NCBI RefSeq assembly: GCF_006345805.1
Contig: NW_021835305.1
Span: 1-41,254 of the forward strand
Length of the DNA stretch: 41,254 nt
Direction: 5' to 3'
Origin: Octopus sinensis
Lineage: Eukaryota
The notes under the pieces are model-generated. The model was not told the DNA's origin, ran no database searches, and saw only the letters and a list, made by a program, of their open reading frames with translations. A program made the translations under genes and the position numbers. The stretch's first letter is position 1; each line of letters opens with the position of its first letter. Below, in pieces: positions 316 to 40,900 of this stretch.

Positions 316-720
316 TGTAGAAGAAAAATACAAACTGGGACAAGAACGTGAAACATTTAGAAGACGATACAAAAAACACGGACCGGGACATTCGAAGCCT
401 TCAATCTTCAGTCAAGAACCGGATCATCTTCGCAATTTCGGCTGATTAATCTTGAGATTGCTCCGATCTGGCCAGCCCCAAAGGAAAATCTAAGCCAAGC
501 GCATTAGATTCCTTGGAAGAAAGCCTCGGATGTATACAAAACAAGGACGGAAAAACGGACGATGTTACACGAGTAAAAAAACAAAAATACGTAAAAACAA
601 TAATGATAATAATAATAACAACAAAAACAGGACGTCACAGACAAGCGTCTTTTCGACAGGACGAGTAAATTTTTGAGCTGGCGTTAGAAGAAAGCCTTAG
701 GGCTACAGAGAGACAAAAAT
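316..720 (-). mobile_element. Non-autonomous element family P1 (probably Penelope-derived), copy 1
   Basis: About 240 bp (328-565) aligns closely with 21488-21725. Both copies start next to a (TA)/(TG) microsatellite and contain hammerhead core motifs. Confidence 0.6.
396..461 (-). ncRNA. Candidate non-circularly permuted hammerhead ribozyme (family P1)
   Basis: Minus strand: GCAA-UC^-UCAAGA-uuaa-UCAGCC-GAAA-UUGC-(14 nt)-UCUUGA-CUGAAGA-uugaa-GGCU. Stem III (GCAAU/AUUGC) and stem I (UCAAGA/UCUUGA) are perfect. Stem II needs a 5-nt insert or a 2-nt bulge. Confidence 0.6.
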
Positions 721-2711: not shown

Positions 2712-2796
<85 letters not shown>

Positions 2797-2818
2797 TATA
2801 GTTATATATATATATATA

Positions 2819-3045
2819 GGGAGAATTCACAACAAAACAAAAGACGAACACAGGTGGTGTAGACAACAAATGGATGTATTAGTATAACTCTCGGGAAGTG
2901 AAAAAGTCTTTTACGTTTCGAGCTACGCTCTTCCACAAAAAGGAACACAGAAAGAAACAATGAAAGAAAATAAAGAATGTGTAGTGGCTAGCGATCTATC
3001 ATGGCGAATGCCGGACAGAAGGGTCACCACGGAGAGCTAGGTAGA
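2819..3045 (-). mobile_element. Penelope-like terminal element (U6-hammerhead family)
   Basis: Closely similar to 20853-21050. It has a degenerate hammerhead at 2907-2943 and (TA)n on both sides. Confidence 0.6.
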
Positions 3046-3594: not shown

Positions 3595-3961
3595 AATTAA
3601 TCAAAGGAAATACTACATATGTCTACCTGCTGGAAATATCAGTCAAAACTCTTATCTAAATCGCCACTATACACTGATAATAACTTCAGAAATCAACCGT
3701 CCGAAGGCAAACGGCTGAGACAATTTCCCAACGTACATTCTAGTATTTGGCTCACGTAGGCCAGTTTCTGCACTGGCGAGCTGAGGCTATTTTACCACGT
3801 GAGTTCAAATACTTGAATGTACGTTGGGAGATTGTCTCAACCCGTTTGCCTTCGGACGGTAGATTTCTGTACTTATTATCAGCGTATTTTGGCGATTTAA
3901 GTCAGAGTTTTGACTGTTATTTCCAGCAGGTAGATATACTTAGTATGTCCTTTGATTAATT
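3595..3961. repeat. Long imperfect inverted repeat (fold-back or MITE-like)
   Basis: Arms 3595-3757 and 3797-3961 are reverse complements with about 20 differences by manual alignment. The spacer is 39 nt. Confidence 0.9.
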
Positions 3962-4023: not shown

Positions 4024-4214
4024 GTGTGTGTGTGTGCGCGCGCGCGTATTTTTGTGTACGTGTTTGTTGCTACTACTGCTTGACAACCGTATATACAAGA
4101 TAAGGGCAGAAGAAAAATTCTAATGCCAAATATGCCGAAACAAAAAATTGTTGATAACCATTATAATTTATGCGTCTCGAAACAAACCGATAGAAATCTC
4201 TAAAAAATTCGTTA

Positions 4215-4275
4215 TTACCGGATTGGTCCAATTTCGGGGTTAATTCATAAGAAATTTTCCCCTCTTCAGCAGCAA
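4215..4275 (-). ncRNA. Type I hammerhead ribozyme
   Basis: UUGCUG-CUGAAGA-GGGG-(19 nt)-CCCC-GAAA-UUGGACCAA-UC^-CGGUAA. The core is complete and all three stems pair. Predicted cleavage is between 4221 and 4220. Confidence 0.85.
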
Positions 4276-4679
4276 ATACGCGAGATATAAATGAAATATT
4301 TACTCATACCCACGGAAAAAGCAAGCACCAAGTCCTGAGCAGACTTAAGTACCCCAAATATATCCAAAATAGAAAAATCTTCGGCGCACCTCGAGACTCG
4401 TGTGATTCGAACTGGAAACTTTCACAGAGTGATAGATTCCGGAAGTGAACACTAATCTATTTATAATTAATATACGATAAAATTTTTTTCGGGAAAAAAA
4501 TTTTGTCAATGGCCAGCATATCAAAAAATGCCTTTAAAGGTAAAATTTATACATAATTTACAAGATAAGGGCAGAAGAAAAATTCTAATGCCAAATATGC
4601 CGAAACCAAAAATTGTTGATAACCATTATAATTTATGCGTCTCGAAACAAACCGATAGAAATCTCTAAAAAATTCGTTA

Positions 4680-4740
4680 TTACCGTATTGGTCCAATTTC
4701 GGGGTTAATTCATAAGAAATTTTCCCCTCTTCAGTGGCAA
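4680..4740 (-). ncRNA. Type I hammerhead ribozyme (second tandem copy)
   Basis: UUGCCA-CUGAAGA-GGGG-(19 nt)-CCCC-GAAA-UUGGACCAA-UA^-CGGUAA. The core is intact but the first pair of stem I is mismatched (A.C). Confidence 0.75.
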
Positions 4741-5110
4741 ATACGCGAGATATAAATGAAATACTTACTCATACCCACGGAAAAAGCAAGCACCAATTTT
4801 TTATTTCGGCATATTTGGCATTAGAATTTTTCTTCTGCCTTTATCTTGTAAATTATGTATAAATTTTACCTTTAAAGGCATTTTTTGATATGCTGGCCAT
4901 TGATAAAAATTTTTTCCCGAAAAAGATTTTATCCTATATTAATTATAAATATATATATATATATACATAGATACATACATGCATGCCTGCATGCATACAT
5001 ACATACATACATACATACATACATACATACATACATACATACATACATACATACATACATACATACATTCAAATGGTTATAGAATTACACATCAGACGAT
5101 GTGTCATTCT

Positions 5111-6004: not shown

Positions 6005-6217
6005 TTGTTGTTGTTGTTTTTGTTGTTGTTGTCCATACAGTTGTTGCTTCGTTGTTATCATTGTTGTATTGGTTGTTAATGTAATTTCTTACTTTCTCGC
6101 TTTTTTTATTGTTCGTTGCTTGTTCGTTCTTTGGTAAATACAGTAATTTCAGTCTCCGTTATTGCCCCGCCCCTCGTCACCAACAATGTCACCCTCGCTG
6201 AAATAGATATCACATAA

Positions 6218-6612
6218 GGCGGCGAGGTGGCAGAAACGTTAGGACGCCGGGCGAAATGCTTAGCGCTATTTCGTCTGCCGTTATGTTCTGAGTTCAAATT
6301 TCGCCGGGGTTGACTTTGCCTTTCATCCTTTCGGGGTCGATTAAATAAGTACCAGTTACGCACTGGGGTCGATATAATCGACTTAATCCGTTTGTCTGTG
6401 TTTAGCCCTTTGTGGGTAGTAAAGAAATAGGTATTTCGTCTGCTGTTACGTTCTGAGTTCAAATTTCACCGAGGTTGACTTTGCCTTTCATCCTTTCGGG
6501 GTCGATTAAATAAGTAGCAGTTACGCACTGAGGTCGATGTAATCGACTTAGCCCCTTTGTCTGTCCTTGTTTGTCCTCTCTGTGTTTAGTCCCTTGTGGG
6601 CAATAAAGAAAT
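6218..6612 (+). mobile_element. SINE family A, full head plus tandem second body
   Basis: A-box-like tggcagaaacg, B-box-like gagttcaaatt, body repeated after the junction at 6424-6437, and a probable TSD agata(t/c)cacat. Confidence 0.9.
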
Positions 6613-6978
6613 AAGATACCACATCGACACCACTACCAACATTACCACCACTACCACCACCACCACCAACTCCATCACATTCATGATCATGATTGAGATC
6701 ATCATCATCGTCGTCGTCGTCGTTGTCGTCATCAGCATCATCACCATCATCAACATCCTTGTCGTCCTCATCATTATTATCATCAGCGTCGCCGTCGTTG
6801 TCCTCATCGTTGTCATCATCTCATCGTCATCGTCTCCGTCATTGTCTTTGTCATCGTCATCATCTTCATCGTCGTCATCATCATCGTTTACTTCTTTATC
6901 GTAAGCGTCATGCTCATTTTGCTTAAACCAATCAATCAATCAATCAACCAATCTACCCATCCATCTCTCTCTCCCTCC

Positions 6979-38469: not shown

Positions 38470-38680
38470 TATAGCCATGTTGATTCGTTAGCTACTGCAC
38501 GCATTTTTTTCTCTCCTTCTTTCTGTTGTTTTTCTCTCTCTGTGTATCTTTCTGTTGAAGAGCGTAGCTCGAAACGTAAAGACTTGTTTTATTTATATTT
38601 CCTGAGCGCCATACTAATACAATTGTTCGCTTTTTCCACCTGCCTTCGTCTTTTGTTTATTTTCATAAAGCTTCCCGTTA
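38470..38680 (+). mobile_element. Penelope-like terminal element (U6-hammerhead family)
   Basis: tcttt-ctgttga-a-gagc-gta-gctc-gaaa-cg-ta-aaga at 38547-38582, flanked by (TA)n. Confidence 0.6.
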
Positions 38681-38719
<39 letters not shown>

Positions 38720-38904: not shown

Positions 38905-39550
38905 GTACAGGTCGTCACCAACTGTGTAAACAACATGAAGTACAAAAACAAACGAGTTAAATACGCAAACAACGAGAGAAAAAATGAAAAACAGGAGAAG
39001 TTAAAAATGAACACAAAGAATGACTCTTCATCAGTTGTCGACTGTCTATCTACTCCTCATTTCGAGGATTCAACGACGATATGTGTCTTCGAAAGACAGT
39101 TGGATTCATAAATTCCAAAATACAATTTTGTATTTATGATGGGTCAAAGCTGGGAAAAAACAGGACAGTGGAGACATACAAGGAAAACCGAACGAAGACA
39201 AACATGGATGGATGTTAGCCTAGAACGAGAGGAAAATAGTGGACGCTGGGAGAAATATTTTCTTTGAAAAGAGAAAAGATAGAAGAGAGAGATAGAAGAC
39301 GTCTAGTCCTTAGAATGTCGTGCAGATCATGTGAAGGAAAGAAAGATGAATGATGGTCACGATTGAGCAACGAGAGAGAGAAAAAGAGAAGGAAGCGGAG
39401 AGAGAGAGAGAGAGAGAGAGAGATAAAACGGTGAAGGGGAGAAAAGGGGAATTAGAAGAGGATGAGGAGAAACCAGAATAGTGTACAGGCGCATCAAAAA
39501 GGTTAAGATAAACTTACTTGGAAATGGATGCCTTTCGCACAATTAAATAA
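38905..39550 (-). mobile_element. Non-autonomous element family P2 (probably Penelope-derived)
   Basis: Unique segment between microsatellites, with a T-rich minus-strand 3' end like family P1 and a permuted hammerhead motif. Confidence 0.5.
39018..39085 (-). ncRNA. Candidate non-circularly permuted hammerhead ribozyme (family P2)
   Basis: CACA-UA^-UCGUCG-uu-GAAUcCUC-GAAA-UGAG-(15 nt)-CGACAA-CUGAUGA-A-GAGucAUUC. There is one mismatch each in stems I and III. Confidence 0.55.
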
Positions 39551-39562
39551 TATATAAGGTAA

Positions 39563-40474: not shown

Positions 40475-40900
40475 CGATCGTTGGCGATTTTTTTCCTCCG
40501 TCTTCCTTTTCTCTTGGACTTTCCACCGTCTCCTGTTCTTAACGAAGGGCTTAGCTCGAAACGTAAAACTACCTTTCTTTCCTTCCCTGAGCGTCTACTA
40601 ATATATTTCTTTACTGCCCACAAGGGGCTAAACACAGGGGGGACAAACAAGGACAGACAAACGGATTAAGTCGGTTATATCGACCCCAGTGCGTAACTGG
40701 TAGTTATTTAATCGACCCCGAAAGGATGAAAGGCGAAGTCGACCACGGCGGAATTTGAACTCAGAGCGTAACGGCAGACGAAATACAGCTACGCATTTCG
40801 CCCGGCGTGCTAACAATTCTGCCAGCTTGCCGCCTGAGTATCTACTAATACTTTGCATGTACCACGTCCTCGCGTTGTTGTTTTTTCTTCTGTTTGTTTA
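40475..40900 (+). mobile_element. Penelope-like terminal element with decayed hammerhead, interrupted by a SINE
   Basis: taacga-a-gggc-tta-gctc-gaaa-cg-ta at about 40540-40565. The ctgagcg..ctaata motif is shared with the U6 family. Confidence 0.5.
40604..40834 (-). mobile_element. SINE family A, full-length monomer with TSD
   Basis: Complete head to tail. TSD tgag(cg/ta)tctactaata at 40588-40603 and 40835-40850. Confidence 0.92.

Follow-up and report, generated by a model that had tools for sequence, protein, structure and literature searches.

A putative decayed hammerhead of the permuted SGC type near the 3' end of an abundant repeat in Octopus sinensis

The window, i.e. the whole stretch of 41,254 nucleotides analysed here, is animal DNA rich in microsatellites, and it contains numerous short fragments of repeats. 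Positions 39018-39085, read on the minus strand, carry three hammerhead blocks in the order cleavage site (S), GAAA (G) and CUGAUGA (C). Read from the letters, this order is that of type SGC, a non-circularly permuted, pseudoknotted hammerhead. The site, called P2 below, and its surroundings are organised as follows:

38905..39560, minus strand: host repeat; family membership covers 38905-39250, and the upper limit is placed from the flanking microsatellite
39220..39517, minus strand: candidate GT-AG intron upstream of the putative ribozyme (GTAAGT donor at 39517, pyrimidine tract, AG at 39221-39220)
39094..39100, minus strand: 5' strand of a fourth helix (P4), 7 bp in this copy and 6 bp in the family majority
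39074..39085, minus strand: block S, with private breaks at 39084 and 39078 where the majority letters restore both pairs
39085-39081, minus strand: stem III strand CACAU, in block S
39080, minus strand: A17, end of the AUA triplet; predicted cut 39080/39079
39079-39074, minus strand: stem I strand UCGUCG, in block S
39068..39073, minus strand: S-G linker of 6 nt, whose last four bases can weakly extend stem II (GAAU/AUUC)
39056..39067, minus strand: block G, with a stem II strand (39067-39064), GAAA (39063-39060) and a stem III strand (39060-39056)
39060-39056, minus strand: stem III strand AUGAG, sharing 39060 with GAAA
39041..39055, minus strand: G-C linker of 15 nt, in which 39047-39041 form the 3' strand of P4, abutting stem I
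39023..39040, minus strand: block C, with a stem I strand (39040-39035), CUGAUGA (39034-39028), an extra A (39027) and a stem II strand (39026-39023)

All the strands and cores given in a preliminary description of the sequence were found again on the minus strand, including the second stem I strand CGACAA (39040-39035), GAG (39026-39024) and AUUC (39021-39018). The core is intact throughout: CUGAUGA, GAAA, the UH site, A15.1-U16.1 and G10.1-C11.1, where G10.1 is 39026 and C11.1 is 39064. Two mismatches had been named, 39078 x 39036 in stem I and 39084 x 39057 in stem III, and both are present. A third, not counted at the time, lies in stem II (39067 C x 39023 U on the minus strand), so that each of stems I, II and III carries one break in this copy. 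The private C at 39067 also lengthens a competing 5-bp hairpin over GAAA (-5.6 kcal/mol), which is the centroid structure in nested folding. It had been suggested that the copy may be inactive; because every stem is broken and a hairpin competes over GAAA, inactivity of this copy appears highly probable.

Nested folding of the site is unremarkable (z 0.55), as expected of a pseudoknot. The Rfam search of 38940-39240 returned no hammerhead, its single match being CRISPR-DR50 at E 1.5, and no hammerhead was found among the 150 matches listed of 355 in the search of the whole window. Other arrangements of the same elements were considered. Types I and III cannot form in cis as there is no GAAA between the core and the element end; in type II, AUGAG has no partner in the linker; and a GCS reading of the same cores depends on the U-rich tail.

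P2 is a member of a large, abundant repeat family. The stretch or part of it was contained in 20 of 24 runs, under four organism labels. Four runs carrying three organism labels (X2, X5, X10 and X15) were aligned to 38905-39250 at 80% likeness, and the number of aligned contigs, from which the size of the family is deduced, was 4408, 3070, 4083 and 674, respectively. These data are contigs without RNA-end information, X15 being only possibly an RNA run, and summing their depth does not give a copy number. The majority letters on the plus strand were A at 39078 (98-100% of summed depth), which restores the stem I pair, A at 39084 (91-97%), which restores the stem III pair, and C at 39067 (97-99%), which restores the fourth stem II pair. 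Resolution of the two named mismatches in the family consensus had been set beforehand as a test, and both resolve. Since about 23 listed positions out of 346 differ from the majority, luck would account for this with a probability of roughly 0.002 (a rough estimate). In majority letters the stems are complete, with 6 bp for stem I, 4 bp for stem II and 5 bp for stem III, although the consensus is a tally per position and the majority letters need not co-occur in one molecule.

No variants in CUGAUGA, GAAA or AUA appeared among the 40 variant rows listed of 80. In the same rows the changes within the family were one-sided only, and no two-sided change was seen. Stem II had been drawn as CUC/GAG plus GAAU/AUUC. 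We prefer a stem II of 4 bp and an S-G linker of 6 nt, because in 16-30% of the summed depth of contigs a variant at 39071 removes the last pair of the GAAU/AUUC extension. The calculated energy of stem II is -1.8 kcal/mol with the distal extension and -1.4 kcal/mol without it. Two of the four stem II pairs of the majority form are G-U, and the majority letter at 39025 turns an A-U pair of this stem into G-U. A second subfamily has a different tail directly after stem II (39010-39025), and in one contig the fourth pair of stem II is C-G.

Two frequent words, together with short stretches that happen to be complementary, can mimic a hammerhead by chance in a window rich in repeats. We calculated how often this happens with a descriptor covering all six block orders, taking as null 200 block-wise dinucleotide shuffles of the window. 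In the window itself the descriptor detected one SGC locus, whose cores also gave a weak GCS reading. Of the 200 shuffles, 4% contained one or more SGC loci and 3% a locus with 11 or more pairs, and the other non-circular orders appeared in 4-6% each. With 4% of shuffled windows matching, the match in this copy alone is only suggestive, and the Rfam searches lend it no support.

The description had pointed to a second family, P1, with the same strand order, with linkers of 4 and 14 nt and with different stem letters. P1 is taken to be two minus-strand copies with cores at 21571 and 411; a relaxed search of the window gave no further SGC candidate with intact cores, and the linkers of these two fit the lengths just named:

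21556..21634, minus strand: P1 copy a, order S-G-C, stems I and III with 11/11 Watson-Crick pairs, P4 with 6/7, stem II not canonical, predicted cut 21616/21615
396..474, minus strand: P1 copy b, same family as copy a, predicted cut 456/455

Structure-blind alignment with MAFFT placed the three blocks of P2 and of both P1 copies in register with one gap. In this alignment 31 of 33 cells pair (94%), versus 21-49% when the partners are slid by 1-3 columns; the test comprises three rows, two of them near-identical, so its shuffle control carries little weight. With the letters of the present copy, 6 of the 11 stem pairs change on both sides relative to P1. With the P2 majority letters, all 8 variable pairs of stems I and III are two-sided and Watson-Crick, which bears out, for these two stems, the earlier claim that pairing is kept with different letters. 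P1 stem II can be drawn as 4 bp after a 5-nt insert, or as 3-4 bp with CC left before GAAA.

As controls we used motifs matching generic core-spacing patterns. There were about 270 such matches in viral and about 270 in metagenome contigs, and the 120 and 118 listed, respectively, served for the comparison. None of the 120 viral matches reached 10/10 pairs, as both P1 copies do. The best of the 118 metagenome motifs, with the same cores and spacing, paired 6 of the 8 variable positions, and the mean was 0.28 Watson-Crick pairs per position. In none of these viral and metagenome stretches did the stems pass, blastn showed no resemblance of any of them to P1 or P2, and family-specific patterns returned 0 matches in the viral contigs and 0 in the metagenome contigs. 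Coincidence, for all the frequency of SGC matches in shuffles, is therefore left very improbable and largely refuted: all three letters that break a stem are replaced by pairing ones in the family, and eight of eight changes are two-sided where the controls pair at most six. The SGC reading held up on the family-majority stems, the two-sided changes relative to P1 and the intact cores, and selection has very probably kept the fold.

The comparison rests on two families without significant flank homology, 77-502 of 1000 shuffles aligning as well as the flanks of P1 and P2. At the sequence level the two are thus unrelated, as had been proposed. A remote common ancestry nevertheless seems likely, because the blocks stand in one register and the layout is shared with the Naiad elements discussed below.

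The coordinates first proposed for the motif leave out a stronger fourth helix. P4 joins the 5' flank (39100-39094) to the linker (39047-39041) through 7 Watson-Crick pairs (-8.0 kcal/mol). Among 20000 shuffled flanks, 7 pairs were obtained in 0.5% and 6 pairs in 2.5%. The equivalent helix of P1 has 6 of 7 pairs, and P4 is retained in the loose-end consensus. A variant at 39096, representing 25-52% of a low depth in three runs, would break one of its pairs.

Type SGC is a named non-circular permutation that has been shown to cleave, at rates of 0.007-0.19 per min (Eckert et al. 2023, PMC10085705). P2 shares with it the order S-G-C, CUGAnGA, GAAA, UH, stems I-III, G10.1-C11.1 and a short S-G linker. 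Both have a one-base insert after CUGAUGA, which is U in the published descriptor and in the SGC-1 oligo, and A in P2. The published descriptors require CUGAUGAG or CUGAUGAUG, and for this reason the CUGAUGAAG form of P2 would escape them. HRIMA-1, from the same work, has fixed stem I letters and the core string CUGAUGA(U)G, neither of which is found in P2. P2 and the published SGC motif also differ in their fourth helix. In the published motif the linker pairs with the 3' tail (helix I-II, connecting the outer sides of stems I and II), and this helix is needed for cleavage by SGC-3, whereas the better helix of P2 is formed by the linker and the 5' flank. Helix I-II can be drawn by eye in P2 at 8 of 9 positions, mostly as A-U and G-U pairs, with a duplex energy of -0.8 kcal/mol. 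According to the passages available of that article, the SGC RNAs were metatranscriptomic and none lay in the genome of a known organism. The SGC topology itself is already known, and its occurrence in an animal repeat family was described nowhere in the literature that we searched. The search, to which subscription journals were mostly external, returned no report of a permuted hammerhead in an animal retroelement, nor is there one in the passages considered of bioRxiv 10.64898/2026.07.22.740005 and PMC13725137.

The host repeat probably stems from a Penelope-like element (PLE), of which it would be the 3' end (pseudo-LTR) left after 5' truncation. Between the core and a (TA)n-type microsatellite there are 123 nt, which include a U-rich tail, and microsatellite also flanks the 5' side. 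Minimal type-I PLE hammerheads (Cervera and de la Pena 2014, PMC4209133) are likewise near the element end with an intron nearby, as in D. virilis Penelope, and share with P2 an extra base between positions 9 and 10.1 (A 39027 in P2) and the G10.1-C11.1 pair. They differ in having the order C-G-S, with stem III absent or tiny, where P2 has the order S-G-C and a stem III of 5 bp in cis. With such a stem III, in principle no dimer is needed for P2. Among the 78 of 132 high-complexity frames of the window scanned with Pfam, no GIY-YIG domain and no PLE ORF were detected, and the RT-type matches were confined to 26656-27388. The latter region (minus strand) contains broken LTR-type retroelement remnants (RT_RNaseH_2 E 6.6e-07, RVT_1 E 0.0023).

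Within the PLEs, the Naiads are described as being without canonical hammerheads (Craig et al. 2021, PMC8557442). Eight Naiad families are marked 'HHR_half_core', the second half lying 35-50 nt away on either side; the notes also include 'HHR_core' labels, and the passages available of that article propose no permuted hammerhead. We read by eye, without a null, part of its 54 consensus sequences, namely the stretches around core words and the record ends. Near the 3' ends of ten of them, this reading gave an S-G-C arrangement that has a flank/linker helix and in which stems I and III each have a minimum of 5 bp: Amil, Aacu, Anas, 3_Chem, 2_Movir, Obim, EuTe and, under names deduced from the file order, Plae, Ovul and Esco. 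Aacu and 2_Movir each show one stem I mismatch. The distance from stem I to GAAA is 9-11 nt in nine of these ten cases, and 10 in P1 and P2. A good stem II was seen only in Plae (7 bp, CC left before GAAA, like P1), the others being weak or absent.

In seven nematode Naiad records (1-, 2- and 3_Nbra, Hcon, Hpol, Asuum and one record in part 13 of the supplement) the reading by eye gave instead the order C-S-G, with three complete stems and a I-II helix. CSG and SGC are circular permutations of one another; type CSG is otherwise published from two sequences only. In the parts examined of other Naiad records, e.g. bivalves, Skow and Adux, neither an S-G-C nor a C-S-G motif was seen, and Bfor and Smim gave ambiguous readings. 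The end of Naiad-1_Movir (PMC8557442 File S5) shows twister-like words instead.

The likeness of P1 and P2 to the Naiads (PMC8557442) extends to the (TA)n target preference, to core words in the 3' UTR with a displaced second half, to the spacing and, for P2 and the SGC cases, to the same flank/linker helix. Insertion in a (TA)n microsatellite and 5' truncation, both used to recognise Naiads, are found here, yet they are not specific to that clade. Six exact P1/P2 strings of 11-15 nt gave 0 matches in the supplement, a search that diverged relatives and strings cut by line breaks would escape. Judged by these six strings, P1 and P2 correspond to none of the published consensus sequences, nor is there an ORF that would place them in the clade. 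The link between P2 and the Naiads is therefore one of layout, there being neither a string match nor a PLE ORF in the window.

These two absences could also mean that the carrier of a genuine SGC ribozyme is a mobile unit other than a PLE pseudo-LTR, namely a non-autonomous repeat resembling a SINE or a retrozyme. The tail of P2 is moreover no closer to the tails of the type-I hammerhead-like family of the window than shuffles are (720-733 of 1000). The position about 120 nt from a (TA)n end, the candidate intron upstream, the extra A and the layout common to Naiad 3' ends all speak against such a carrier, and a derivation from PLEs has been argued for animal retrozymes too (bioRxiv 10.64898/2026.07.22.740005), so that we regard it as improbable. 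An origin of the repeat family from a PLE is well favoured, and a place of the host element within the Naiad clade itself somewhat so. The reading that we prefer (probability about 0.7) is that P2 is a decayed type-SGC hammerhead copy situated towards the 3' end of an abundant repeat, and that this repeat is most likely a PLE pseudo-LTR, from the Naiad clade or a related one.

According to this reading, the three blocks of the transcript would fold into the usual hammerhead three-way junction, helped by the fourth helix of 5' flank and linker abutting stem I. Hammerhead cleavage yields a 2',3'-cyclic phosphate and a 5'-OH. The RNA would cut itself after AUA, at 39080/39079, leaving these two ends. 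Longer precursors, whether read-through or tandem, would in this way be trimmed to the unit-length RNA that is reverse transcribed. A trimming role of this kind has been proposed for other PLE hammerheads (PMC4209133). Since its stem III has 5 bp in cis, the ribozyme may act as a monomer, in which it would differ from the minimal type-I hammerheads of PLEs. In the SGC form the flank/linker helix on stem I would replace the I-II helix of the published motif, and in some lineages a much reduced stem II, or none, may be enough for cleavage.

Cleavage is the step at which the preferred reading has its main competitor, a real and conserved hammerhead-derived fold that does not cut itself. It would serve as a recognition or priming signal for the reverse transcriptase, or cut only with the help of a protein or of a second RNA supplying stem II. 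Such a fold would agree with a stem II that is weak or absent in P1 and in most of the Naiad SGC readings while stems I, III and P4 persist, with the weakness of the published I-II helix in P2, and with the minimal PLE hammerheads, which cleave poorly in vitro and for which other roles are not excluded (PMC4209133). It accords less well with the P2 family, which retains every core base, G10.1-C11.1, A15.1-U16.1 and the UH site, or with the nematode CSG versions and their three complete stems and I-II helix. We therefore consider a non-cutting fold unlikely, and expect that the majority form of P2 probably cleaves.

On a wider scale, we lean towards non-circularly permuted hammerheads being regular processing ribozymes of Naiad-type PLEs, as SGC in cnidarian, acanthocephalan, crustacean and cephalopod families and as CSG in nematodes. 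If this is true, such hammerheads would move from environmental RNA to animal genomes at high copy number, and would be abundant in animals and not environmental-RNA rarities. It offers a testable answer to the question of why many Naiads seemed to be without the hammerhead carried by other PLEs. Structural and engineering studies would also gain natural variants, with a new fourth helix and a reduced stem II, and there would be a simple model of how such permutations evolve. In this model, SGC may derive from tandem type-I (C-G-S) units that lost a C block and an S block. This is a guess from 4-7 shared bases before GAAA: the P2 stem II strand at this place is that of the type-I family of the window, and the P1 strand is that of a motif at 26486.

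This type-I minimal hammerhead-like family has five copies, at 38474-38690 (plus strand), 2796-3010 (minus), 20833-21050 (minus), 21200-21400 (plus) and 40500-40604 (plus), with stem II GAGC/GCUC followed by GAAA and with the CUGAUGA core decayed in 5/5. One copy is 450 nt from P2 on the opposite strand. The motif at 26486 (plus strand) is an intact type-I minimal hammerhead after an (AAT)n run. At 18273 (minus strand), CUGAUGA and a 5-bp stem II are accompanied by GAGA replacing GAAA, possibly a decayed type-I motif.

Other repeats share the window. The region 4091-4954 contains two direct copies of a motif with CUGAAGA, GGGG/CCCC and GAAA (cores at 4269 and 4734, minus strand) and with splice-donor-like words upstream; they sit in a direct and inverted repeat arrangement like that drawn for PLE insertions. 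A SINE-like family with tandem units of 165-185 nt, probably an octopus SINE, has many copies (6214-6618, 19505-19915, 31941-33049, 40601-40835, 12724-12946 and 15376-15552). Finally, 3595-3961 is a 367-nt imperfect palindrome, 83% self-complementary and perhaps a miniature inverted-repeat element.
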